This document shows, in pieces, positions 1,491 to 61,520 of a stretch of 64,000 bases of DNA. How positions within the stretch are numbered: the first letter of the stretch is position 1; each line of letters starts with the position of its first letter. The notes beneath the pieces are model-generated. The model was not told where the DNA came from and ran no database searches. It was given only the letters and a program-made list of their open reading frames with translations. Both the position numbers and the translations under genes were made by a program. The stretch is taken from positions 17,608,001 to 17,672,000 of the forward strand of contig OZ231126.1 in NCBI GenBank assembly GCA_965153355.1. The letters are read 5' to 3'. The DNA comes from Flaccisagitta enflata (taxonomy: Eukaryota).

Positions 1491-1867
1491 AAAGGAAGAA
1501 GTGATTTAAAGAAAACTGAGAGCATTATAATGCTCCATATTTTCTTTGAATTACATACTTGGTTAATGGACCAGCCCACATGTGTATCATGCTATAATAA
1601 AATGAAACATTTTAGTGATTTTTGGAAGACACTTTTTTATTATATTATCAAGTATGTCTGTAGGATCATAATTTTTCTATTTCTGGTTTGTTATTTTGAA
1701 AAAAAGTTGAAACACGCAACTGTGGCCATGTTGGGCTTGTTTTTTTATCAGTTTCCAAACAGAATTATTTTCTTCCTACAATATGCCTTCCTTTGGATTC
1801 TGATTCCCTTCATTTATTCCATGGCAGTCAAACACACTCACTCACACACCATACATTAAAACTTTCC

Positions 1868-2603
1868 TTTTGGGCAGCGGCCCCAAAGGGGCCAATGACC
1901 TATGCTTTCACAAATAAGGGAAATTTCTCCTTCTTCTTCTCCTTCTTCTTCTCCTTCTCCTCCTTCTCCGTCCCCCCCCCCTCGAGGCCCAAATCCTAGT
2001 CTAGAGGCTAGAGGCCCTCCTAGTCTGGAGGCCCAAACCCTAGTCTCGAGGCACAAATCCTAGTCTCGAGGCCCAAATCCTAGCCTTGAGGTCTAATTCC
2101 TAGCCTCAAGGCTCAAATCCTACCCTCGGGTCCCAAATCCCAGCCTCAAGGCTCAAATCTCAGCCTCGAGCAAGCTCAAATCCCAGCCTGGAAAATAAAA
2201 TCCCAGCCTCGAGGCTCAAGTCCCCAGCCTCGAGGCCCCAAACTTCAACCTCAAGGTTCTAAATCCCAGCCTCGGGTGCTCAAACCAGCCTCGAGGCTCA
2301 GCTCCCAGCCTCGCGAGCTCAAATCCCAGCCTCCTCGAGGTTCAATACGAGCCATGAGCTCAACACGAGCCATGAGGCTCAAATACCAGCCATGAGGCTC
2401 AAACAACCCCAAGGCTCAAATTCTAGTCCCTCAGGCTCATATCCTGTTGCCTCCAGGCCCTAATTCCAGCCTTGAAGCTCAAATAAAAACAGCATAGGTC
2501 ATCAGCCCCTTCGGGGCCGCTGCCCCTGTAACCACCTCACACACACAGACACTCACATAGGGGCAACGGGTACCGCTGACCATCTGACGCTTTTGCAACT
2601 ATT
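1868..2603 (+). mobile_element. HINE-like family B element, inverted relative to the 901-1490 copy
   Basis: Starts TTTTGGGCAGCGGCCCCAAAGGGGCCAATGACCTATGCT, ends GGGTACCGCTGACCATCTGACGCTTTTGCAACTATT; internal 20-bp array. Confidence 0.7.
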
Positions 2604-3688
2604 ATTACTTGCCCTCATACAGACCAAAGAGTGCACTCTGCAGGAAAGGCAAAGAATGCTGATGGCAGCAGTGTCAAAGACCGTGAGAGTATGTTGGATA
2701 AACTTTCATGGTATTTTGACAACGATAAGATGGAAGCAGATGAGGATTCAGTTCTCCCTGGAAATTTCCAAATGATGAACAGCTTTTTCCCAACTGATTT
2801 TTAACACCTCAACTTCAAACTTCTGTATCTTTTTTACCATTTGACCGACATAATTCTGCTTGGTGGCAAATGCTTCATTTTTTTAAGCTCTGTAATTCTG
2901 TCATGAATTTTTTTATAATCTACTAATAGATATCTAAGATAAGACATGGAACAGACCTAAAACTTTTTTTTGCGCCGCACTGTAAAACAGACCAAAACCA
3001 GATGTAGATAAGGTGTAAACCAGACGTAAACCAGATGTAAATCAGACGTAAATCAGATGTACAGCAGACATAAACCAGGTACTGTTGAACAAATTGCTCT
3101 TACAGATTTTTCAAACAGGACCTGAATCAGACTAAAACCAGACTTAAACCAGACTTAAACCAGACGTAAACCAGACATAGACCAGACGTAAACCAGACTT
3201 ATGCCAGAATAAGACCAGACCTATTTAGGACTTAAACCAGGTACTGTTGAACAAAGGGGTATTTTGCCTACACCAATACATACATTGTAGCCAAATGAAT
3301 CTTTATTTCACTCAGTTGCTACAAGTTTTACATTTATCTTTGTTACGCTATGTGGACCTCAAGGGTAACAAATTACAGATTTTTTTTGGGTCCAATGTCA
3401 AATGGTGCTTTTATATTTTTCATTGTTCTTTGGGTATCAACTTGATGTATCTACCACCTCATTTACAAAATACAGTGCAATAACAATGTGATGTTAAATA
3501 AATGTAAAATAAAAGGATTAACTCATGTCTAGTCAAACAGTTCTTTGAAAGTCAGAAAATGATCTACCCAATGAGGATTAGTTTCATTAGAAGACTGGGA
3601 GGGGGTGCATGACATGACTGGTAAGGGGTACATGAGGGGTAAATGAAAGATCAGAACCCAGTCTCAATGAAAGGCACATAGCTAAGAG

Positions 3689-3918
3689 CAGGGGCGTAGG
3701 ACAAGGGCATGCCGGGCATGCCATGGCATGCCCTGTTGTCGGGACACTGAAGTTGTCGGGACACCAATTTCTTCAAAAAAAAACAAAAAAAAAGAAAAAA
3801 AAAAGAAGGGAGAAAGAAGGAGGAGTAAGAATAAGAAGGAAAGGAAGAAGAGGAAGAAAAGGAAGAAGGAAAAATTAAAGAAAATGAAAAAAGAAAAAAG
3901 AAAATAAAATGCGGACCA

Positions 3919-4011
<93 letters not shown>

Positions 4012-4609
4012 GACAGACTGGCAGACAAACAGAGGAATTTGAAGTAATAAGTTGAAAGATAAAAATATTTACATAGATTGGAAGTAAAAGGAGAAAGAAA
4101 AAAAAAGGAAAAAAAAGACAGTACAACACAGACACAAAGGTCACAAATTTTATTGAAAAAAATCAAATGGATGCTATGATTGATAAATTTGCTAAAAAAA
4201 CCTTCTTTGTTACAATTTTTTGTTCATGGATGTATAGTTGCACAAGTATGAAATAGTGTTATAGTACTGCCATCATTTTTGTTTTTCTACTCATTGATTT
4301 CCTTCCCCATTTCCAAACCCCTTGATTTTCCCCTCAACTGGGGAGTGGGGGGGGACAACTATATTGTAAGACCAGTAATTCAGAAATTGTCATGAAATTT
4401 TTCATTAAAAAAATTCATGAAGCAACTAAAGTTGCTAATAATGTCTTATCACTAGACAACTCATTAAGCAAGCAAATGTATAACAATAATTACTCTTTTT
4501 ACAGTTTATGACCCTAAAACCACAAGTTAGTTTCTGTTGGGACACTAAATTTGTCGGACACTAATTAGGGGGTGGCATGCCCTAAAAATTCAACTCTCCT
4601 ACGCCCCTG
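3689..4609. mobile_element. hAT-type MITE
   Basis: TIR CAGGGGCGTAGGA / TCCTACGCCCCTG; exact 8-bp TSD GCTAAGAG (3681-3688, 4610-4617); inserted in the 67-bp repeat. Confidence 0.9.
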
Positions 4610-6422
4610 GCTAAGAGAAAGGGGTATATGAGGGGTACATGAGAGATCGAAACCCAGTCTCAATGAAGGGTACATGGAGATAAGAAAGGGGGTACATGAG
4701 GGGTACATGAGAGATCAAACCAAGTCTCATTGTAGGGTACATGGAGAAACAAACCAAGTCTCATTGTAGGGTACATGGAGAAACAATGGGGGTATATGAG
4801 GGGTACATGAGAGATCGAAACCCAGTCTCAATGAAGGGTACATGGAGATAAAAAAGGGGGTACATGAGGGGTACATGAGAGATCGAAACCCAGTCTCATT
4901 GTAGGGTACATGAAAACGCAAAGGGGTTACATGAGGGGTACATGAGAGATCAAATTAGTCTCAATGAATGACATGAGATGGAATAGGAAATGAGGGGTAC
5001 ATGAGATTGAACTCAGTCTCAATGAAGGGTACATAGAGAATGAGGCATGAGGGGTACAGAGAGATCAAAAACCAGTTTGCTGTAGGGTACATGGAGAAAC
5101 AACGGGGGTACATGAGGGGTATATGAAAAATCAAAACCCAGTCTCAATGAAGGATACATGGAGAAAAGGAGGGGGTACATGAGGGGTACATGAGAGATCA
5201 AACCCCAGTCTCAATGAAGGGTACATTGAGAATGGAATAAGGTACAGGAGGGGTACATGAGAGATCAAAACCCAGCTAACTAAGGGCACATGGAGATAAG
5301 AAGGTACATGAGGGGCACAAGAGAGCTCAAAACCCAGTCTCAATGAAGGGCACATGGAGATAAGAAGGGGTACATGAGGTTATGAGAGATTAAACCTAGT
5401 CTCAATGAAGGGCACATAGAGAAGAGAAGGGGGTACATGAGGGGTACATGAGAGATCGAAACCCAGTCTCATTGTAGGGTACAGGAAGAAGCAAAGGGGG
5501 TACATGAGGGGTACATGAGAGATCAAACCCCAATCTCAATGAAGGGTACATGAAGAATGGAATTGGGTACATGAGGGGTACATGAGAGATTGAAACCCAG
5601 TCTCAATGAAGGGTACATAGAGAATGGGGTACATGAGGGGTACATGAGAGCTCAAAACCCAGTCTCAATGAAGGGTACATGGAGATAAGAAAGGGGGTAC
5701 ATGAGGGGTACATGATAGATTAAAACCCAGTCTCAATGAAGGATACATGGAGATAAGGAGGGGGTACATGAGGGGTACATGAGAGATCGAACCCCAGTCT
5801 TAATGAAGGGTACATTGAGAATGGAATAAGGTACATGAGGGGTACATGAGAGATCAAAACCCAGCTTAAATGAAGGGTACATGGAGATAAGAAGGGGGTA
5901 CATGAGGGGTACATGAGAGCTCAAATCCAATTCTCAATGAAGGGTATATGGAGATAAGAAAGGGGGTACATGAGGGGTACATGAGAGATCGGAACCCAGT
6001 CTCATTGTAGGGTACATGGAGATAAAGAGGGGGTACACGAGGGGTACATGAGAGATCAAAACCCAGTGTCAATGAAGGATACATAGAGATAAGGAGGGGG
6101 TACATGAGGGGTACATGAGAGATCCAGCACCAGTCTCAATGAAGGGTACATGGAGAATGGAATGGGGTACATGAGGGGTACATGAGAGATCAAAACCCAG
6201 CCTCAATGAAGGGTACATGGAGATAAGAAGGGGGTACATGAAAGGTTCATGAGAGCTCAAAACCCAGTCTCAATGAAGGGTACATGGAGAAAAGAAAGGG
6301 GGTACATGAGGGGTACATGAGAGATCAAAACCCTGTCTCAATGAAGGGTACATGAAGATAAGAAAGGGGATACATGAGGGGTACATGAGTGATTGAAACC
6401 CAGTCTCAATGAAGGTTACATA

Positions 6423-7417
6423 CACTGCGAACCATAAAAAAGGAAACAGCAGTTCTATAAGCTATTTCTTATGAAAAAAATGACTTTTTGATATTTTCTT
6501 TGTGAGATATGGAAAGAGTGTCATCAAATGAAGACAATGCTACAAATCTCACGAGTTTACATCAATTATTTTAGATTTTATAGTAAAAAGAAGATATGGT
6601 ATCAGAATCTGTTTATGAACTGTGAATTCTTCAAAAGATATGAAAATAGGGACCTTTTATTTTGATTTTTATCCTTTGCAGTACAGGAAATCAATTGATA
6701 TCATAGATCATTTGAAAGATATTCAAAAGAGCTTTCATTTGCCGCCAATCTCACATTTCTAGCTCAATTTGTTTGGACACAGTGAAAAAAAGACTGGAGA
6801 GCATTAATTTTCAAGTTTGAAATGGCGCATAACCAAAATGTACCCATTTAACTTTAAACTAATGCCATTTCCAAACGAGTAAAGCTGGGAGGCTGGGATT
6901 GGTCTAGAATGAAAGATCTTTTAAAGATCTTTCAAATGGTCACTGATTTTGTTTACTTTTTTCAATTCAAACATAGATATTTTAAGAGAGGAAAAAGTTC
7001 CCTCATTTCTAAAATTTCTATGAAGAAAAAATTCTTTCTATTGTCATTCACAAAACGTTTAAATCAAGAGAAAACCTATCAAAATCCATGACATTGAGAA
7101 AGCCCTTGAAAAAATCTGTCATTTGAGCCGTTTCTGGAGTTACTAGCTCAATTTGTTTAGAGATTACAACAGTTTTAGTAAAATTTCTCCTCTATAAACT
7201 ATGAAAGAAAATCTATTGTTTTCCCACTTAGGTTTTGATACATTTGTCTTCATTTTAACATAAGATCCAAACAAATTAATCAAATTTGATGAGACTGGTG
7301 GCAAATTGTTCATTTTTTGAAGCTCTTTGAAATGATCATGAATAACAATTTGATTTGTTGAATTTAAACTATGTAAAATTAGGATGAAAGTTGTTTCTTT
7401 TTTTATGGGTCGCACTG
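6423..7417. mobile_element. Tc1/mariner-type MITE
   Basis: ~28-bp imperfect TIR CACTGCGAACCATAAAAAAGGAAACAGC / GTTGTTTCTTTTTTTATGGGTCGCACTG; TA on both sides; splits the repeat unit at GGTACATA|GAGAAGAG. Confidence 0.85.
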
Positions 7418-8075
7418 TAGAGAAGAGAAGGGGGTAAATGAGGGGTACATGAGAGATCGAAACCCAGTCTCATTGTAGGGTACATGAAGAAGCAAAAGGG
7501 GTACATGAGGGGTACATGAGAGATCAAACCCCAGTCTCAATGATAGGTTTTACAAGTAATTCGAAATGCGCTTGAAATTATTTTCGGAACGAAACGACGG
7601 ATAATTGCGGCTCATTGAGTGCGCGGAAAGGCCCGAAAAATCGATCAAAACTGTAAAATCATCCTAAATAAAATATGCGTCCGGTAGATTTTTTTACGCT
7701 CTTTTCGATGGTGCGCTTTTCAAAACTTTTCGACGTCGGGAAGTATCATTTTTAATTCATTCTTGCTTTCTTTTCCTTCTTACGCCTTCCTGTCAAGTCT
7801 ACCCGTTTTCTTGCACCGCGCTCCGGACGACCCCAAAAGAGAGCTTTTTCAATCACTTTTCAGATTTTTTTTTCTCCTTGACAGAGTTTGTCAGGAAGCG
7901 ATTTTGTAAAACCAAAAGTAACCGGTATTGTGATTTTTTTCATCTCCGTTCTTCAGCCGTGTTTTTTGTTTTCGTTCAACGCAACCAAGTCATTGCTTGC
8001 AATCTAACGAAATTTCCTCGATTGCCAGTTACCAAATATCATTCATGCAGCTTTAAGTCATGGCAGGAAATACGT

Positions 8076-8148
<73 letters not shown>

Positions 8149-8175
8149 AAAGAGGAATGAATGAATGAATGAATG

Positions 8176-8660
8176 AACATTACCGCGAGTCGGAACATTA
8201 CCGCGAGTCGGAACATTACCGCGAGTCGGAACATTATGCGAGTCGAAACATTATGCGAGTCGGAACATTATGCGAGTCGGAACATTATGCGAGTCGGAAC
8301 ATTATGCGAGTCGGAACATTACTGCGAGTCGGAACATTACTGCGAGTCGGAACATTACTGCGAGTCGGAACATTACTGCGAGTTGGAACATTACTGCGAG
8401 TCGGAACATTACCGCGAGTCGGAACATTACCGTGAGTCGGAACATTACCGCGAGTCGGAACATTACCGCGAGTCGGAACATTACCACGAGTCGGAACATT
8501 ACCGCGAGTCGGAACATTACCGCGAGTCGGAACATTACCGCGAGTCGGAACATTACCGCGAGTCGGAACATTACCGCGAGTCGGAACAATAACGCGAGTC
8601 GGAACACTAACGCGAGTCGGAACAATCACACGAGTCAGGACAATAACGCGAGTCGGAACA
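8176..8660 (+). repeat. 18-bp minisatellite (CATTACCGCGAGTCGGAA)n
   Basis: Near-perfect tandem copies; source of the spurious RESEHY / ASRNIT ORFs. Confidence 0.95.
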
Positions 8661-8873
8661 TTTCCTTTGTTGAGTTAAAAAGTTTTACTAGTTAGAATAT
8701 TTCAGTTTTTACATTCTGCGCGTCAGACCAAGAGTTAGAGCATTTAATTTGAATGCAAGGAACTAGGTGAATGAAACGATTAAAGTGAATGAAGTGATGA
8801 GAGCGAATGAAATGATTAAAGTGAGTGAAATGATTAAAGCGAATGAAATGAATGAAAATAATAAAATGAATAG

Positions 8874-9483
8874 GTCAGGGTGCAAACGAAGACAAAATTT
8901 GATTTTCAGTCACAATAAATTGTTATATATAGTTATCTTTATAGGTAATATTTTTTTAAATAAAAAATTTTATATTCCTTATTTCTTTAAGAATATATAA
9001 AAATGATTACAATAAAAAAAAATTCTTTTGTATGTTCAAAAAGATCAAAGTTATTCTACAAAACTTGAGAAATTCTCCCAAAAATGAGAGGAAAAGTTCA
9101 GAAAGTTATTGGGTAAAATTATAATTCTGCTTCTGAATGCAAAATTTTGCATTTCTAAACATATGGTCCTCATCTTATGTGTCTTTAGAAAGACTCCATG
9201 TTTTTGAAAATCTCATTTTTTGAATCTCTATGTTAAGTTATAATTTTACCCAAAACATGTCAGATTGTAAAATAAGATTTCCCTTAAAAACTTCCTTTTT
9301 TCAGACATTTATCCCAACATTTCACTGTTACTTTGAACACAAAAACGTTTTGTATTGCAAAAATTCTTTAAACACAAACTAGTTATCATTTTTCTTTGAT
9401 GAAATATTTCAATTAATAATGTCTATCATATTGCTAAAAAAACATGTTGACTGATCAAATTCTGTCTTCGATTGCACCCTGAC
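8874..9483. mobile_element. MITE-like TIR element
   Basis: GTCAGGGTGCAAACGAAGACAAAATTTGAT / ATCAAATTCTGTCTTCGATTGCACCCTGAC; ATAG flanks both ends (possible TSD). Confidence 0.7.
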
Positions 9484-18540: not shown

Positions 18541-19116
18541 TAGCAAGTGCGTACCCATATTACTATTATTAGCTATAGTCGGGGGTCTTAAGGAAATGCC
18601 GTGCAAAAATTTTCAGCAAGCTCTATGAATTTGCATACGGGACTATTTTTTCATGCTGAAGACAGCCAAACCATCCGTTTTTCAAAAAAATTTTCGCACC
18701 CCTTCTAAAAATTGCTTTTTAGGCCATTTTTTTCACTTCAAAACGTCATAACGGGTAAAACGTTCAGGTTGGCTCAACAAAATTTTACATGGTGAAATAT
18801 GTGATATTTCTTTGGTTACATACCAAATTTCAGCTTAATCGGTTGAGTAGAAGCGGCGTTATTGAATTTTAAAGTCTAGGTACCTTTTTTCAAAAAAATG
18901 CCAAAATTTTGAAAAAGGGCTATCCCTAAGCTAAATGGTTCAACTTCATGCCACAAGATTTTGCATGGTCAAATGTATGATGAAAACCGACTTGCATGTC
19001 AAATTCTAACCTCTCAGCCCATATAGAAGCAGAGATATGAATGTTCAAAGTTAAGCATATTTTTTTGAGAAAAAATCAAAAACTACAAAAAAATGATTTT
19101 TTCTCCTCAACGACAA

Positions 19117-20713
19117 CTACGTGAGGTTTGTGCTTGTGGTACAAAGTTTAGGGAAAATCCTTATCTTACCATTGAGAAAATAAGGGCTCAGTTTAAGAAA
19201 GAGATAGATAGCCTTGTAGTGAAGCTATCGGGCAAGTTTAGAATATCGCGGACAGCTTTTAAGAAATGGAAGGGTGCTTTTCTGAGAAATTTTAACAATA
19301 AGCTGATGTCATGTAAGGAGACTACTAGCTATAGACTGCCGGTGCTCACGCGTCGGGAATGTAAGGCGGAACTTTTAAAGTTACAGGATAGTTATGTTAT
19401 CACTGTTGTAGATAAGGCTGCGGGCAATTTTGCTTTTACATGTAAAAAGTTCTATTTTTTGAGATTAGCGGAGGAGTTAGGACTCAATAACGATAACCCT
19501 GGAAATGAGACGTACAGGTTTTCACCGAATTCTGAAGGTGAGATAGTTGGTAGTATTAGGACAGATCTTTTGAGATTCAGGATTGCGCCCGACTCTAAAG
19601 AGGAAAAGTTAGCTCTTTTGTATCAGACTCCGAAGTTTCATAAGAATCCGCCAAAGATGCGATACATAGCTGGTAATGTCAGTACGGTCACATCAAGACT
19701 GGACAGAATTGTGGCTAGTGTCTTGAAAATGTGTAAGGAGCATTTCAGGAATTTGTGTAATAAGAATAAGAAATTTTCAGGTGTAAGATATTATTTTGAT
19801 GTTCAGACTAGCATTGAAGTGAAGGATATGTTTAATTCGGCATATGGATTGGCTGACTCTATTTCGATTAATGATTTTTCAACATTGTACACTCTTTTTG
19901 ATCATGACCATCTCATGACCAATATCAATTGGTTGCTTGCTAAGCTTAGCAAGAACTGTGGTATGGGTTTTTTAAGGATTGGTCATGAGAAATCCTGGTG
20001 GGTTGCTAACAATTCAGAAGGATTAGTGTACTCTGTTGGCGAATTTATTGAAATGGTTGACTACCTAATCCGCAATACCCACATAAAAGCTTTTGGACAT
20101 ATTTTCAGGCAAACTTTGGGGATAATTATGGGAGGTAAGAGTTCAGGCTGGCTTTCAGACTGCTCTCTTATGGTGGACGAGTTTAAATATATTGATAATA
20201 AGATAAAATCAGGACTTAGAGATGAGGCAGAATGTTTAAGATTTTTTAGAAGATATCGCGATGATTGTACTTCTATTAATTTAAGTAACCCAAGAGAATG
20301 ATCAGTCAGATCAGGCAAATGTTTTAGACATGCAGGTAAGAATAGAAGGAGGCAATATCATTACTAAGGTTTTTTGTAAGACAGACATTTTTCCATTCCA
20401 TGTAATATCCCTACCCTTTCTTGAGAGTAATCTAAATTCAAGGATTTGTTATAAAGTTTTTTATGGCCAAATCATAAGATTTCAGAGACTGTGTAATTTT
20501 CAGGAAGATTTTGAGGAACGTGTCAAATTTTTATTGGATACATTAACGGGTAGAGGTTATAAATTTGGGCTACTAAAAAGGGAATTTTGTAAATCTGTAA
20601 ACAAATATATTTCAGAATTTCAGAGATGGGCTATCCCTTTGGATTTTGATAAATGGTTTTTAAACATATCCAGAAATATTCCTTCTTCCATTACTTTTCA
20701 GGTAAGAAACTAG
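19117..20713 (+). pseudogene. PLE reverse transcriptase (truncated, frameshifted)
   Basis: PLE-type motifs GTKFRE, DKAAGNF, TPKFHKNPPKMRYI, DFSTLYT, QTLGIIMGGKSS, RRYRDD, ANVLDMQV and thumb region YGQIIRFQRLC..RGY. Frame shifts near 20287 (DDCTSINLS / TQENDQSDQANVLD), consistent with a short deletion. No GIY-YIG follows the thumb. Confidence 0.9.
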
Positions 20714-21450
20714 GTAAGAAACTAATCTAGCTTGTTAAACACCATTGAGCTTTATCTAGATTATTAATAAGCCAGCTAATTAGTTTGAGATCTAGGCTGT
20801 TTGGTGAGTTTTTGTATTATTCGGTGAAATTTGGGCTTGGTCTATTCATATAGCATGCTCATATTTCATTTATAAGATCATTGGTCTATTCACATAGCTG
20901 TGATCTATATTTGTAAATTTTTGTATGTATTTATGCTTATTGTAATTTGGTGAAATTTGGGCTTGGTCTATTCATATAGCAGGCTCATATTTCATCTATA
21001 TAGATCATTGGTCTATTCACATAGCTGTGATCTTTATTTGTAATTATAATTTGTAAATATGTAAACTATGTAGATTATGTATTCCATGTTTTATCAATCA
21101 AACTATGTTTTTGTGAAAGTTTTTATGAAAATTTATATGTATTCTTTATGAACTACATTTTTCATTTGCATGATTTGTTCAGATTTTCAACTGTTTCATT
21201 TGTTTTTCATTTCATTCCAGGACCTTTGTTTTCAATTTTCATTTTCATTTCAGGACCTCTGTCCTCCCTAATCTAAGACCTCTGTCCATCTGACTCTGTT
21301 TTATTTTGACCACTCCTATTTGACCAGGACTCTTCCTTTTGATCCTCTTCCTCTTCATTCTTCACCTCATTTACTTTCATTTCTACTTCTGATTCTTTTC
21401 TGCCTCTCCACTCTTCCATTTTTGTATTTTTTATGTTTTTAACTTGTATT

Positions 21451-21558
21451 TGTTGTACTTTGGGAAACGGTGATGGGGCCTAAACCGGCCAGGATTAGGG
21501 GTAATAATTTGTTTTACCCTTTTTCCTGCGAGTCCAAAGCCTCGGCTGAGGTACAACA
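21451..21558 (+). ncRNA. Twister ribozyme, type P5 permutation
   Basis: P5 UGUUGUACUUUGG/CUGAGGUACAACA; linker GAAA; P2 CGGU/ACCG; conserved GA (21472-73); T1 UGG pairing with CCA; UAA (21481-83); T2 GC/GC; P3 CAGGA..AGGGGUAA/UUACCCUU..UCCUG; P4 CGAG/CUCG closing loop UCCAAAGC. Confidence 0.85.
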
Positions 21559-22712
21559 TTATTTGTTCTTGTTTTTTGGTTTTTATTGTCTTTCTTTTCC
21601 TCATTGCCTACATTGACACAGTTATAAATGAAGAGGAAGGAGAAGAAGAAGAAGAAGAAGAGGAAGAAGAAGAAGAAGAAAAAGAAAAAGAAGAAGAAGA
21701 AGAAGAAGAAGAAGAAGAAGAAGAAGAAGAAGAAGAATTTTTTTCCAAATTAGGTTGCTTGCTTTCACCCTCGGACACCTAGCTGGTAACACCCAGCTAT
21801 TAGTTTTTCCACAAACTTTGGTTTGAAATATAAAGACAATCACTCACGTTTACTGGAAATCAATCAAAGTTCATGGACAAATCAAAAAACTTTTTATAAG
21901 CTTTTCAGTCAAGAAATCCGCATGTGATTTTCTGTCCTTTTATGGATTTGGTAGGCATTTGAAGTTAGTAAGGTTTTTTTGGCAATTTTGCAGTAATTTG
22001 CATGGGGAGTGTTTTGATCTCATTCGATTTTGTCTAAAGCATAAATAAAAGCGTAAGACTTTTTCAAGCTCTACCTGGTGAAAAAATCCGCGTGTGGCTA
22101 AATATTTCTATTTAGATGTGACAGTTGTTTGCTTTTGAGACAATATCAATTGGACAGGTGTTAAAGGAGCAACATGGGGACAGGTAAAGTAAGACCCCAC
22201 TAAAAGTATTTCAAATTCATCCATACTGTTCCAAAAAATGCAAAATTTTGAAAAGGGCCATGCCTAGGCCAGACGATTTGGCCGATTGCCACAAAATTTG
22301 ACATGGTGATAAGCATTATCAAAACAGAGTTATAAATTTTCAAAGAATCACCATTACTTTTGGAAAAAAAAAAACAACAAAAATAGAAAAAATACCATTA
22401 CTTCTGAAACATAGTGGCCTCGGAGATGAAATTTAAGATGATGAATTGCGTGATATTCATGACTCTACATGCCAATTTTTAGCTATCTAGCTCACACTGA
22501 GGTTTTAAATGACCATTTTTTAGCCTAAAGACCCAGTTTTAGTTCATCCACTGGTCCTTAATTGGGGATTTTCCTCTGACTAGATCTAATCTATCGCTAA
22601 CCAAAGAAAATTTGATGATTGGAGATCTAGTAAGGCTGATATGAAGCCTAATAGAGCAAAAATTTTGTCTGGAAGGCCTGATTTTGGACTGTGTAGACTG
22701 ATTCAAGGTGTA

Positions 22713-25094: not shown

Positions 25095-26013
25095 CAGTGG
25101 GTGGCTTAAAGTGGTGTCATTTTCAAATCTGATGACGCCCGCGGAGAAAATGAGACCATTTACATCATAGATGAGAATTCCCAAATTTGGGGGTGATCGG
25201 ATAAACTTTGCTCATACCCGCCACCCCACCCCCCTAGATTTGAGCCATGGTGGCGTTTCTAACAATCCCTGTTTGAACAGGTTACTTTAAAAGATTATAG
25301 CTCCCAAACAAATTGAGCTAGAGACCTCAACTTGGGCTCATTTTAAAGAGCAGACAAAGTTCTTTAAAATGAGCCCAAGTTGAAGTCGGTAGCTCAATTC
25401 GTCTAGGAGCGACAGTCTTTCAAAGTTAATGCTTCTTTTAAGAAAAAGAACCATTTACCCCTCTCTTTGTGGGCCTATATCTTTGAAACGAATTGAGCTG
25501 CTGACCTCAATTTGGGCTCATTTTAAAGAACAGAAAGAGCTCTTTAAAATGAGCCCAAATTGAAGTCTTTAACTCAATTCGTTTGGGGGCAACAGTCTTC
25601 CAAATTTTATGTTATTACGTTATTATAAGAAAAGCATACTGTAAATTCTGTCTGGACATGAGAAAAAAAAATGGTAGTATAATAATAACATTAAAATGAT
25701 GTAAAAAAATCAAACAAACAATATTTCTATAAGATATAAGAAAGTTATAGTGAATTTAATTATATATTTGATTTGATTATTTGATTTTTTGATTATATAT
25801 TTTCTGTACAAGATTTTTGCATGAGTATATAAAGATATGTTTTCATGATAACTGTCTGTAATAAATGATAAAATAAATTATTATTTGTTTATACTTTAAA
25901 TCTCACTTCTGTAGCTTAATTTTTCTCTCTATTGTGCTCACCCCTGTTATCTCAACTTTAGACAGAATCTACTGTACAATCCTTCTAGAAGCATGTTTCA
26001 CGTAAACGCAAGT

Positions 26014-27653: not shown

Positions 27654-29888
27654 TCTGGAGGGTTTTAGACTATGAGAGCTTATATATCGGCCTTAGTGTG
27701 AGCTAGATAGCTAGAAATTGGCATGTAGAGTTGTAAATATCACACAATTCATCATGTTAAATTTCATCTCCATGGCTACTATGGTTCAAAAGTAATGGTA
27801 CTTTTTCTATTTTTTTTTTTTTTCCAAAAGTAATGGTAAATCTTTAAAAATTCATAACTCTGTTTTAATAAGGGTTTGATAGCTCAGATTTGACATGGAA
27901 TTAGGTATTAATAATGCTTATCACCATGTCAAATTTTGTGGCAATCGGCCAAATTGTTTGGCCTAGGCATAGCCCTTTTCAAAATTTTGCATTTTTTGGA
28001 ACAGTGGGTACCTAGACTTTAAATGACAATATCTCCGCTTCTATTTGAGTTTTTAGACTCAACTCAAAAAATATCATATTATTCATCATGTAAAATTTCA
28101 GGTCAGTGGCATTTGTCGTTGAGGAGAAAAAATCATTTTTTTGTAATTTGTAGTTTTTTTCTCAAAAAAATATTATTAACTTTGAACATTCATATCTCCG
28201 CTTCTATATGGGCTGAGAGGCTAAGATTTGACATGCAAGTCGGTTTTTATCATACATTTGGCCATGCAAAATCTTGTGGCATGAAGTTAAACCATTTAGC
28301 TTAGGGATAGCCCTTTTCAAAATTTTGGCATTTTTTTGAAAAAAGGTACCTAGACTTTAAAATTGAATAACGCCGCTTCTACTCAACTGCTTAAGCTGAA
28401 ATTTGGTATGTTAACCAAAAAAATATCACATATTTCACCATGTAAAATTTTGTTGAGCCAACCTGAACGGTTTACCCGTTATGATGTTTTGAAATAAAAA
28501 AATGGCCTAAAAAGCAATTTTTAGAAGGGGTGCTAAAAATTTTTTGAAAAACGGATGGTTTGGCTGTCTTCAGCATGAAAAAATAGTCCCATATGCAAAT
28601 TTCTAGAGCTTGCTGAATATTTTTGCACGCCATCCTTGATTTTGGCGCTAAGATCCCCGACTACTAGGGACAGATACAGGCTCAGAGGATGGCGTGTGAG
28701 AGAAAGGAAATGTTGGCCATCTTGATTCATAATCATTAGTGCAATGACTAATGAGTGGAGACGGGGGAGGGGGGGGAGGGTTTGGTAAGAAGGTAGGGAG
28801 GATCACAACTGTTAAAAAGAGACAGAGGGGAGGGAAAGGGAGGATGGTGAGGGATGAGGGAGGGTGTAAACAGCGGATAGAACTCTCACCCTCACTTTAC
28901 TGGCACAAATAACAGAAAAACGCGTATGGTTTTAATTCAATGTGTTTAATGATGCGTGAATGGATGATAAAGCATGCAAACTGTGGGCCACCGGAGAATT
29001 TGCCGGGGATGATATGATAGAAATATCCTAAAAGGATAAATAAATCTGGAGGAAGATAAACAGAAAGGAAGGCATGATAGATGTAGTGAAAACACTCGGG
29101 AAAACCCGGTGGGATCCACACAACTTTTGGCATCAAAGATTTGATGATGAGCGCAAAATTTCAACGGACTGTGTTATGAGGCACGTGCACGCGAGCGCGT
29201 AGTTAAATTGGTTCCTCGGTTCGTCGGTCCAATGACAGGGTTTCCCCTTTACTAGCATGCTAGCATGCTTTTCTCCTCTTGTTGATCTATTGTTGAAACA
29301 TTGAACAACTGTTTTTTGACAAAATTGGACATAATGGTTCCTTCTGCCGATAATTATCAAAGCAAACCATGAACATACATCAATGTTCTCCATTCATTCA
29401 TTTATTCATTTGTATATTCGTTCAGTCATTCACTCATTCTTTCTATCATTCGTCCATTCATTCATTAGCTAACTAATCCAATTCTTTCTAGCCATTCCGC
29501 CAGTAGCACTTTCTGCCTTGTTTCTGTGGTAAATGAAGAGATCCGAGAAAAAAATGAAATATGAGCGAATTCATATTTTCATTTGCTCCAGTAATAATTC
29601 GTACGTAGAATCATTAAAAATCATTTTAAAAATAAAATCTAATCTCACTGGGATAAAATCGAACTTCGGAAAGAGGCAGTTTGATGGTTGGAGTTTGTGA
29701 GATGGCTCTCATCAAAGTCAGTATTCAAATGCTTGTCATCGTTAAATCATCAGCGACAGGATGCAGGGTATACGATGCGCTGGTTTGTTTTGAGATCAGG
29801 GTGCAAGCAGATAAAGCATTTCTTGATGATGATGATTTTGATGACGATGCCGATGCCGATGTCGATGACTATGATTATTTTGTTTACG

Positions 29889-30635: not shown

Positions 30636-32722
30636 GGCCGAGGATTGATCGTGATCGAAAACATGATGGAACAATATTATCCTTTTGAAAAATACAGCGA
30701 CATCTTAAAAATTAACACCAACATTGGAAGAGTGCCGCTCCCAAACTAAAGCTACAATTACCAGATTGATTCTTCTTTTTAGACGACGCTATAACTATAA
30801 TCAGAGTTATAAGAACTGGATTGCAGTTTTGATTAAATCAACGTCATTAATTCATACTTTTCTTAACTGTTTCTCTACATTACTCAAATTGCTCTTCCCT
30901 ATGGCTGGCAACAAATCCTACAACATTTGAGCCTCTTCAGTGAACAGATTTTAAACAGCTTACTCATGTATCTCACTTTCTCTCTGAGGTCTTGTTTTTT
31001 CCTCTTTCTCCCGGGGTCTTCGGGCGTGTTTTTTCCCTTATTTTCTCGATCTGGAGCTAAAATTCATCCATCATTTTGAAGGCTTCAGGGACTATTTTTT
31101 TTCCAAAAATCATTCACCCAACCAAACTTTTGGAGGGTTCCTTGTTTTGTTTTTAAAAAGAGGGTAAGAACCTAAGTACTGTAGTTCTAGGCCTAGGCAC
31201 CGGTAAACTGTTGAGTCCTAGGCATAATGATAATGAAAAAAACAAAAACAATGAGCTTTTTGTTTTATTCTTGTTTTTTTCTCTTTAACTCATCAACGTA
31301 GACTTTCTCGATGTAGCTTGTTGCACATCTTGGCTGATATCTACAGTCCTATCGGTAAATCAATTTTTTTCTAACATTCTTTCCCTTACATTCCAACCTC
31401 TCATTATCCGATCCACCACATACAAATTATCGACCTGTAGGTGTACCTCCTCCGACCCAGCACCCATTCGATTCCAACCTCGAAAAGACTTGAGGATAAA
31501 ATAATTTCTCAAATGAGAACCAGCTGTATTCAAAGCCTTACATAAGCGACTGGAAGGAGAGAGAGTCGGTATACCTAGAAATCTGCTTCAGCAATTAATG
31601 AAATTCGATCATTCTTGAATTGAACTCTCTACTTCTTCCTTGTATTTTTTTTCCCATGATCATCTTTCGCCAAACGTCTTTTCTTGATCTTGGTCGGAGC
31701 AAGGCCAGATACATGGTTCTAGATGTTCTCGGCGTGAAATGAAACTAAATCAGGATCAACGATTCGTTTTGTGAGTTTGTAGCGATCAATCCTCACAACC
31801 TCCCATCAATCATAGTAGAGCACCGCTATAGCGCACTCGCTAATAAGGCATACCTGCCTACAAGGCATAGAACTTACCGTCCCTTGAGATATTTCATAAT
31901 TATTTCTATATTGGCAATAAGGCTGCTTCACTTTGAAGCATAATTGGAGCCCAACTGAATGTGGTTTAGCCATGAGCACGCTTTTATGCATGAAATCATT
32001 AGATGTCATTGGTCAAAGGGTAACCACCACGGTCGATTTGTGTATTAACGACTAAGGATCCCTCAACCAAATCTGATGGCAAGCTCTAGAGACGAAGGGA
32101 CTTAAAGAAAGAATGGAATTTAAGGGGAAAACCGAAAGAATTCTGTGGGCCTCGAAATCGAGTTTGAATTTAGGAGATTTAGTTGAACAAACAAAAACAA
32201 GAAAAAAATCGATTTTGGCTGAAAAAAAGTTTTCAGACTAAATCGCCGATTTAAACTTAAAGCTCAGCAAAACTGTTTAATTTTTGAATCCTATTCTTTA
32301 ATTCGATAACATACCTAAGAGCGCCAACTTCTTGTTTACTATTTTCAAAACCTTAAGATTTCCATATTTGATTATCACTCTATAATTTATTCTATGATTA
32401 TTTTTGCTGCTACGTGTATACGGTAAGCTGTGGTAATCGAGCCATAATTTGCATATTGCCATCATGTGAAACCATCGGCATCAATGGAATGACAGCTTCT
32501 TATTTAGACAAAAGAGATGATATACCGCAGTATGGCATTGTCCAAGCTGTGTTCCATAAGAGTAAAGTGTGGGGATTCATTTCCGTGCCAGAAACTGCGC
32601 GCAAGTGGTGAACAAGACGCCATAGTTTCCCGTTCATGTTTTTTCATTGTATTGGGCCAATTTTATTCCAAAAAGGTTTTCCATCTGGCTTGGTTCTAAA
32701 GTTCAAACGCCTTCCGGATTAC

Positions 32723-33382
<660 letters not shown>

Positions 33383-33488
33383 CTGTGAGAATCGTGTGTG
33401 TTTGTTGTTTGGTATGCATGTGGACGAGAGATAGGAAATTGAAATGGAAAGAGAAAAAGAGAGAAAGATGAATGATATTGGATAAAAA

Positions 33489-33670
33489 AAACAAGGCTGG
33501 ATACACGGCTACCCAAGTCACGTGCTGATGGGCAGGGGCAGTGGTAAATGCATTTGAGCAGGAGCAGTGATGCAATGATCAGCCGTAAATGTAAAGGGCG
33601 ACGGACCGACGGACAGACTGACGGAAAAAGCGGACTAGCGAAGTGTAGAGTCGCGTTGTACGCGACTATT
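33489..33670 (+). mobile_element. HINE family A copy
   Basis: AACAAGGCTGGATACACGGCTACCC start, (GGAC)n, GTAGAGTCGCGTTGTACGCGACTA hairpin end. Confidence 0.8.
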
Positions 33671-42122: not shown

Positions 42123-42825
42123 AAAGTGTCTTTTTAGGTGCGACAATGCACCTCTATAAATGGCTGTGTCCGTCGGTCGGTCGGTCGGTTGGTCGGGTAA
42201 CACATTCTTTCGACGATCCACACGTCGCTCCTTATTGGCCTACTTGGTCTTGTTTCCTTCATTTTTTTTTTAGTGTGTCGACTCTTTCTTCTGTTTTCTT
42301 TGATTTCTTCTTTTTCTTTTTCTTTTTTTTTCTTCTTTTTCTTTTTCCTTTTCTATTTTTTCTTCTTTTGCTTCTTTTTCTTTTTCTTTTTCTTTTTTCT
42401 TCTTTTTCTGTTTCTTCTTCTTCTTCTTCTTCGTTTTCTTTTTCTTTTTCTTTTTCTTTTTCTTTTTCTTTTTCTTTTTCTTTTTCTTTTTCTTCTTCTT
42501 CTTCTTCTTTTTCTTCTATTTCTTCTTCTTCTTCTTCTCTGCCACATATTGTCAGTTCATTCTCCTCTTACACATTTCATGAATCGTTTTTTTTTCTTCC
42601 TCTTCCCTGTCTTTCGAGTAAATATGACCTTTCCCATGATGATTCCCATGTTCTCGCCCTTTTTTCCCAAACCTTCGTTTTTCGAGGCAAAACTGATGAA
42701 TCTGTTACGTAAATATCGTCTTTCTCAATCTCTCAAATCTGATGGGATAATAGTTCCGGTCATGCCGGGTCATGAAAAGGTGTTTTAATTACTACATCCA
42801 TGTACACTAAAGGTTTCCGATGCCC

Positions 42826-60019: not shown

Positions 60020-61520
<1,501 letters not shown>

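Follow-up and report, generated by a model that had tools for sequence, protein, structure and literature searches.

The 64,000-nucleotide (nt) stretch of Flaccisagitta enflata DNA presented above (assembly GCA_965153355.1, contig OZ231126.1, positions 17,608,001 to 17,672,000), called the window here and numbered from its first letter, contains the remains of a Penelope-like element (PLE) of the Naiad clade. The reverse transcriptase (RT) frame of this element stops at 20713; 738 nt downstream, on the same strand, begins a sequence (21451-21558) in which every core element of a twister ribozyme is present in P5-permuted order. This sequence probably encodes a twister-class self-cleaving ribozyme core that lacks the P1 stem. 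It lies in a high-copy module of about 181 nt, which follows the 3' untranslated region (UTR) of the PLE and is itself followed by a GAA microsatellite (Table 1).

Table 1. Features of the Naiad copy, its 3' UTR and the twister-like module (positions in the window)
Feature	Position	Strand	Basis or remark
5'-truncated, frameshifted RT part of Naiad-clade PLE	19111..20713	+	homology to 981-residue protein P0006
Naiad 3' UTR	20714..21446	+	no Rfam family
Tandem duplication (20809-20916 / 20937-21043)	20809..21043	+	92.7% identical; four copies of UTR motif
High-copy module of about 181 nt with twister-like motif	21447..21627	+	contig depth and boundaries
P5, 5' strand	21451..21463	+	pairs with 21546-21558; pair probabilities 0.54-1.0
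AAA, 3' strand of L2, immediately 5' of P2	21465..21467	+	sequence
P2 strand CGGU	21468..21471	+	pairs with ACCG 21484-21487
GA of L1	21472..21473	+	G21472 aligned to conserved G of Rfam consensus GAGgG
T1 strand UGG	21474..21476	+	pairs with CCA 21534-21536
GGCC, palindromic	21477..21480	+	sole letters at the expected position of the P1 hairpin
UAA of L1	21481..21483	+	sequence; predicted scissile bond U21481/A21482
P2 strand ACCG, then T2 strand GC	21484-21487, 21488-21489	+	GC pairs with GC 21539-21540
Long optional P3 hairpin	21490..21528	+	pair probabilities 0.90-1.0
P4, CGAG 21529-21532 / CUCG 21541-21544	21529..21544	+	closes L4
L4 UCCAAAGC	21533..21540	+	contains T1 strand CCA and T2 strand GC; consensus loop GUCcCAAGCC
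P5, 3' strand	21546..21558	+	pairs with 21451-21463
(GAA)36 microsatellite directly behind module	21630..21737	+	

The Naiad-clade element and the twister-like core

The RT part is read in two frames, 19069-20301 and 20285-20713, which correspond to residues 438-973 of P0006 with 67% identity over residues 438-830 and 64% over 845-973. P0006 is one of 50 homologues matched at E<=0.001 among 4681 candidates scored; 14 of the 50 carry a precomputed PF01541 match. An N-terminal GIY-YIG domain scores above the Pfam cut-off in P0006 (residues 106-203), P0033 (89-156) and P0050 (20-118), and slightly under it in P0002. This part is absent from the window copy, which begins at residue 438. The open reading frame (ORF) in the window contains VVDKAAGNF, and DKA is nearly invariant in the consensus of 27 homologues. 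The same consensus contains CxC (as 'CDC'), in a region missing from the truncated window copy. An N-terminal GIY-YIG domain, the change of DKG to DKA and CxC in the linker are the published markers of Naiads (PMC8557442). By its sequence, the upstream RT is a member of the Naiad clade.

Four sequence sets were compared with positions 19900-21640 at 80% likeness: X2, a DNA run of the organism; X1, a marine metagenome; X10, a metatranscriptome; and X24, poly-A RNA reads. Contig differences are quoted from 40 of 326 rows, and joints are among those listed there. Positions 20285-20301 are common to both RT frames, and the alignment with P0006 is interrupted at 20285-20289. In X1 and X2 contigs whose sequence equals that of the window to either side, about 45 letters more than in the window are present at 20285-20301. 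Because the frame breaks where these otherwise identical contigs carry more, the window copy is a defective member of a young family; it is therefore a recent deletion derivative of a family which otherwise looks intact. It is the sole RT fragment in the window according to tblastn with PLE queries.

The truncated start of the Naiad copy (about 19111-19116) coincides exactly with the end of a 523-nt inverted repeat (18596-19116 and 28113-28633, 94% identical). A weaker second match (75%) joins 18848-19091 and 27802-28043.

No hammerhead or other Rfam family is matched at E<=5 in 20690-21460, and a scan of the whole window at gathering thresholds finds no hammerhead. This agrees with the published description of Naiads as being without canonical hammerheads (PMC8557442). 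An earlier note on this DNA had described a twister in a place where a hammerhead is expected; since the PLE is a Naiad, and the clade is published without canonical hammerheads, that expectation does not apply here.

The 3' UTR carries four copies of the motif GGTCTATTCA(Y)ATAGC, which start near 20839, 20883, 20965 and 21010 (within 20838-21060) in a 127-nt tandem duplication. For comparison, metagenomes supplied 15 related Naiad loci with protein identities of 50-66%; in six of them the sequence continues for at least 700 nt past the ORF. By blastn the motif recurs, often repeatedly, in the UTRs of at least eight of these loci, and L003 and L004 contain its 10-letter core without a mismatch. 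DNA word depth along the stretch peaks in the GGTCTATTCA block (up to 43,720 in X2), as does, by a wide margin, depth in the X10 RNA library (616.8 at 21021-21079). The motif may be a conserved RNA element of Naiad 3' ends.

Behind this UTR, the twister-like core is complete in all parts other than P1. P2 encloses L1, in which UAA lies opposite GA and the T1 triplet; P4 closes an L4 of the form U-NNN-AAGC. The letters needed for both pseudoknots, T1 (3 bp, joining L1 with L4) and T2 (GC/GC), have the potential to pair. In T1, a G:C pair of the consensus is replaced by U:A, and the change is compensated on both sides. P5 comprises 13 bp, of which 10 are Watson-Crick and three are G-U, and P3 consists of 4-5 bp, a 2x2 internal loop, 8 bp and a 9-nt loop. 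The AAA immediately before P2 is comparable to the GUAAA shown in a published twister table (PMC8501958). From the literature, G21472 is the putative catalytic G (PMC5408937, PMC8501958); the cut site U21481/A21482 is predicted by analogy with the published U-A site (PMC8501958). The earlier note had listed all of the core elements in permuted order on the sense strand, about 740 nt past the RT stop, with a T1 of CCA/UGG that compensates for the common CCC/GGG; reading the sequence pair by pair confirms each of these observations.

Such a core is improbable by chance. A descriptor made of P2, GA, T1, UAA, GC and P4/L4, which leaves out P5, P3 and AAA, has one match on both strands of the real window and four matches in 300 dinucleotide-preserving shuffles, or approximately 0.013 per window. 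A chance origin becomes far less likely once the 13-bp P5, which flanks the core exactly, and the well-formed P3 are considered as well; this is an estimate rather than a computation. A 131-nt region around the motif also folds more stably than expected (z = -3.9), and none of 200 shuffles folds as well. The nested twister fold has an energy of -40.4 kcal/mol; this is exactly the minimum free energy (MFE) fold when the T1 and T2 letters are kept unpaired.

The abundant module and its junction with the Naiad UTR

Word depth, which is summed contig depth and not copy number, changes sharply along the stretch. In X2 it is 1,917-7,637 over the RT (19900-20725), 1,625-3,350 over 20726-20843, 8,753-43,720 over 20844-21079 and 2,290-9,201 over 21080-21433. 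The two bins that hold the twister motif (21434-21551) reach 38,078 and 40,570, against 2,803 in the preceding bin; depth then falls to 19,369 and 14,703 over 21552-21640. The same peak is found in X1, in which the twister bins have depths of 294 and 228 and the flanking bins 62 and 65. Thus the depth peak falls on the twister motif itself, and by word depth the module is approximately 10-14 times more abundant than the adjoining UTR bin.

The borders of the module are sharp. At 21447 the match of four X2 contigs gives way to a different upstream sequence that they share (loose ends with a median of 193 nt and an agreement of 0.74). A 188-nt contig from the X10 RNA library covers exactly 21447-21627 with 0 differences, and one X2 contig covers 21449-21627 with 21 differences and five gaps. 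These edges and the alternative upstream sequence mean that the motif sits in a discrete module of about 181 nt which is also found, several times more often, behind other sequence. The 30-letter upstream consensus of the other module copies is absent from the window at up to three mismatches and, as an exact match, from the 15 Naiad loci. No second copy of the module is present in the window, and no joint that goes back on itself occurs among the joints listed; likewise, there is no tandem array of the module in the window or among those joints.

The junction between UTR and module is bridged in two independent DNA sets. At 21442 it is spanned by all seven X2 contigs (depth 7,751) and by both X1 contigs (39.5), in which this position lies at least 56 letters from the contig ends. 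The bridging depth equals or exceeds that of the family-specific start of the UTR (1,625-3,350 in X2, 16.8-28.2 in X1). Going by summed word depth, the junction is read as existing in many copies. Joints of 21362 or 21372 to the module carry little weight, as their sides comprise 26-28 letters of low-complexity sequence. The earlier note had taken the motif to be the PLE's own ribozyme; the bridging X2 and X1 contigs bear out the physical link, while the part of the claim that concerns ownership is weakened by a module which is about ten times as abundant as the UTR and also lies behind other upstream sequence.

Every X2 and X1 contig reads G rather than A at 21442, and most read A rather than T at 21432; at these two positions, just upstream of the module, the window copy has substitutions of its own.

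The (GAA)36 array directly behind the module is likely to be either the insertion target or the 3' boundary. Naiads are published as inserting preferentially into microsatellites, with (TA)n named (PMC8557442). Long GAA/TTC arrays are also found on the opposite strand at about 42286-42539 and 60026-60634.

A pseudo-LTR (long terminal repeat) arrangement built from partial tandem copies is not seen in the window, which contains one RT fragment and no second module or UTR end; being 5'-truncated, this copy says little about the family in this respect.

Elsewhere in the window, a 316-residue ORF on the minus strand (32719-33669) weakly matches Piezo TM1-24 in Pfam, with 19.3 bits (E 4e-4) where the cut-off is 28.8. 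This ORF may represent one exon of a gene for a Piezo-type channel of an animal.

Missing P1 stem and searches for further copies

A number of results weigh against a working twister that belongs to this Naiad, in addition to the abundance of the module, which may belong primarily to another element, and the different upstream sequence in four X2 contigs. One is the absence of P1. Only the four letters GGCC separate T1 from UAA, so that no P1 hairpin is possible. P1 is published as phylogenetically conserved and as one of three 'essential' stems, together with P2 and P4 (PMC5408937). The same paper reports that P1 is dispensable in vitro, as a 'mini-twister' cuts off a single nucleotide at near wild-type rate (PMC5408937); elsewhere, twister cleavage without P1 is called inefficient (PMC8501958). 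In the P1-less constructs of the literature the 5' nucleotide is free, while here it is tethered to T1 by GGCC; a P1-less construct with a 4-nt tether is not described in the consulted passages on P1-less twisters.

The Rfam twister models do not match the motif. The earlier note had named the lack of a covariance-model match in advance as a result that would count against it; no twister is found in the whole window at gathering thresholds, and at E<=10 twister is absent from the four matches obtained with 261 nt and the eight obtained with 114 nt around the motif. The weak matches that do occur at the motif (mir-1502, frameshift sites and similar) are chance matches. Because E-values in these scans are multiplied by the number of families, 4227, they would not reveal a weak score for any one family; the gathering threshold of Twister-P5 (RF02684, clan CL00120) is 37.6 bits. 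Among 150 bacterial genomes, two yielded real type-P5 twisters at E<=0.01, and one of these scored above the cut-off.

That the model stays silent can plausibly be explained by the missing P1 together with the 37-nt P3 insert. The Rfam Twister-P5 consensus reads cGCA, GAGgG, an 8-bp P1 hairpin, UAA, UGCg, GC, Aaga, cCG, GUCcCAAGCC and CGg; P1 takes up 20 of its 58 positions and P5 is unmodelled. Outside P1, the window sequence matches every upper-case consensus letter with two exceptions: the T1 pair, and the 'Aaga' junction, which is replaced by C, the 37-39-nt P3 hairpin and G. A motif with every element of the catalytic core is thus missed, which points to a blind spot in the Rfam twister models.

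Unconstrained folding is also unfavourable. The MFE structure, calculated without pseudoknot terms, has an energy of -44.2 kcal/mol and prefers another pairing of the core; the pair probabilities of P2 and P4 are then just 0.01-0.02. Set against the -40.4 kcal/mol of the twister fold, this means that the pseudoknots would need to contribute approximately 4 kcal/mol.

Related elements do not carry the motif. The earlier note had proposed that this lineage uses a different ribozyme class; the strict core descriptor finds a twister in none of the 15 related Naiad loci, the six with long 3' flanks included, and by blastn these loci have no similarity to 21451-21558. A relaxed descriptor gives two AT-rich matches inside the ORFs of L005 and L010, which were rejected as twisters, and an Rfam search of the 15 loci at E<=1 gives mir-297 only, a chance match. 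Viral contigs match neither the Naiad protein alignment nor the module-specific pattern. In prokaryote genomes this pattern has 36 matches; none of the 36 has a matching L4 and all are attributed to chance. Consequently, the window, the 15 Naiad loci, the viral contigs and the prokaryote genomes supply no second twister copy for covariation.

Traces of cleavage are not evident in the RNA data. Contigs of the X10 library represent all three parts, RT end, UTR and module, at low depth (about 4-12), which may reflect DNA carry-over. The 188-nt X10 contig runs uncut through 21481/21482; this is a weak point, as carry-over may explain it as well. No pile of molecule ends is found among the X24 RNA reads, of which there are only 10, all T-rich and less than 95% alike; these reads are uninformative as to expression or ends.

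Interpretation and comparison with known systems

A real P1-less twister variant is probably tied to this Naiad family or to its non-autonomous derivatives, and this is held with moderate confidence. The specific form of this explanation, in which a P1-less, P5-permuted twister variant sits in the 3'-terminal module of the Naiad family and its derivatives, has about an even chance of being correct. The module is read as a 3'-terminal, pseudo-LTR-like unit of the family, which is shared with short non-autonomous copies or is their parent. RNA from a read-through or tandem transcript would fold into P5, P2, P3 and P4 and would be locked by T1 (UGG/CCA) and T2 (GC/GC). The U21481-A21482 bond would then be cut with the help of G21472, leaving a 2',3'-cyclic phosphate and a 5'-OH, and the cut would trim the element RNA to unit length. 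Hammerheads have been proposed to do the same in animal retrozymes and other PLEs.

In the main competing explanation, the motif is part of an unrelated element that is short and high-copy, either SINE-like or the 3' end of a different retroelement family. A 5'-truncated 181-nt copy of this element would have landed beside the Naiad at (GAA)n, and the Naiad itself would then have no ribozyme. The sharp boundary at 21447, the four X2 contigs with other upstream sequence, the 10-14-fold depth step, the X10 contig that ends exactly at both module borders and the lack of a twister or of any similarity to 21451-21558 in the 15 related loci all agree with such an insertion. It is nevertheless considered unlikely. 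The junction at 21442 is bridged at or above family-level depth in X2 and X1 independently, and the module is on the same strand, terminal and next to a microsatellite, as is expected of a Naiad 3' end. Depth alone does not make a sequence foreign, since the UTR block 20844-21079 is also of high depth and yet is Naiad-associated, and summed word depth is not copy number. Next in rank, and a little less likely again, is a non-catalytic look-alike: the resemblance would be real and the RNA would not cleave, being a decayed or fortuitous cluster of twister-like hairpins in a repeat. The silent Rfam models, the missing P1, the preference of the MFE for another core pairing, the uncut X10 contig and the lack of covariation data fit this description, and with the core alone expected about 0.013 times per window, chance examples are bound to turn up when very many windows are scanned. 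It does not account well for a 13-bp P5 placed exactly, AAA before P2, a clean P3 between T2 and P4, a doubly compensated T1 and a depth peak on the motif; P1 is in any case dispensable in vitro (PMC5408937).

A role for the motif as the 5'-end processing ribozyme of a downstream non-LTR element of RTE type, as for Perere-3 in Schistosoma mansoni, is highly improbable. The literature does describe twister variants that lie at the 5' ends of RTE-clade elements (PMC8501958), and PMC7761336 mentions them as 'in preparation'. Those variants are of type P1 and cut at the extreme 5' end of the element, whereas the P5-permuted cut would fall 31 nt inside the motif, so that sequence upstream of the cut would fail to be passed on. 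An RTE-type element downstream was discarded as a candidate: the module is followed by (GAA)36, the next ORF of at least 110 residues starts at 25915, and tblastn with PLE queries finds no further RT in the window (non-LTR queries were not tried).

A twister in a Naiad would fill a noted gap. Hammerheads are regarded as near-universal in PLEs, with a function there that is unresolved, and their absence from Naiads has been taken to mean that a ribozyme is perhaps unnecessary (PMC8557442). No explanation was offered for the lack of hammerheads in Naiads, which are a large clade in invertebrates. If the preferred explanation of a Naiad twister is true, it would point to a need for self-cleavage in PLEs which any ribozyme class can meet, as seen for circular RNAs, and the roles of twisters would extend beyond 5'-end processing of RTE elements. 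The motif would also be a natural P1-less permuted twister, with a palindromic linker that bears on dimer-dependent cleavage as a general feature of PLEs.

As the earlier note supposed, this combination appears to be undescribed: literature searches, which did not cover supplementary sequence lists, returned no twister in a PLE. No paper that links twisters to PLEs or Naiads was found; a prior listing may exist in the supplementary Naiad consensus files of PMC8557442 or among the 2060 T-variants of PMC8501958. In the passages seen, 'twister ribozyme' and 'Penelope-like' occur together just in general lists. The earlier note was also right that hammerheads of PLEs and a twister at a Schistosoma non-LTR element are published (PMC6765202, PMC8501958).

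A bolder version of the preferred explanation is doubtful, and is less likely than either of the first two competing explanations. It holds that Naiads replaced the hammerhead with a P1-less P5-permuted twister in which GGCC forms P1 only between molecules or tandem copies, that the ribozyme acts as a domain-swapped dimer, and that it seeded abundant non-autonomous retrozyme-like elements in a marine animal. An in-silico domain-swapped dimer with GGCC:GGCC as a 4-bp P1 has an energy of -90.7 kcal/mol, compared with -80.8 for two monomer twister folds and -88.4 for two monomer MFEs; the dimer is a model only, as any long hairpin can make such a dimer in silico.

The known systems differ in how closely they resemble the locus. 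T-variant twisters of the RTE element Perere-3 in Schistosoma mansoni belong to type P1. They are found at the 5' end and cleave at the boundary of the element, and their P1 is partly built from the target-site duplication (PMC8501958). They share with the window a twister-class motif at a retrotransposon and a P1 that is weak or variable. The window motif is not a T-variant of this kind: it is P5-permuted, its cut site is internal, and it lies in the 3' region of a PLE rather than at a non-LTR element. Animal non-LTR retrozymes consist of short tandem repeats of 170-400 nt, every one of which contains a type I hammerhead, and give circular RNA; the 181-nt window module is high-copy, but it is twister-like and single in the window, and does not qualify as a retrozyme.

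The Naiad clade of Craig et al. 2021 (PMC8557442) agrees with the locus in its GIY-YIG relatives, CxC, DKA, the lack of a canonical hammerhead, the microsatellite and the multi-copy state. It differs in that the paper reports no ribozyme, whatever its class, for Naiads and contains the word 'twister' 0 times. The window copy is truncated, and its own endonuclease and CxC parts, as well as any upstream pseudo-LTR, are missing.

Type-P5 twisters (RF02684) share with the window motif the order P5, P2 strand, GA, T1, UAA, P2 strand, GC, optional P3 and P4/L4, the letters GA, UAA, GC and U-CC-AAGC, and the possibility of T1 and T2. In contrast to the model, which has an 8-bp P1 with a loop, the window motif has no P1, a U:A pair in T1 and a P3 of 37-39 nt. 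It is also found in a eukaryotic retroelement, whereas both of the real examples retrieved are bacterial.

Hammerheads are published in PLE pseudo-LTRs (PMC6765202). The minimal hammerheads that PLEs and amphibian retrozymes carry have a helix III shortened to a palindromic tetraloop and depend on dimer formation for cleavage (PMC7229834; Lunse et al. cited in PMC6765202). These differ from the window motif in ribozyme class, and dimer action is only modelled here. The likenesses are a small self-cleaving motif (here predicted) near the PLE 3' end or in a pseudo-LTR, one stem represented by a palindromic tetranucleotide, and short non-autonomous copies that outnumber the autonomous element. 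If the twister does act as a dimer, it would mirror the dimeric minimal hammerheads of canonical PLEs.

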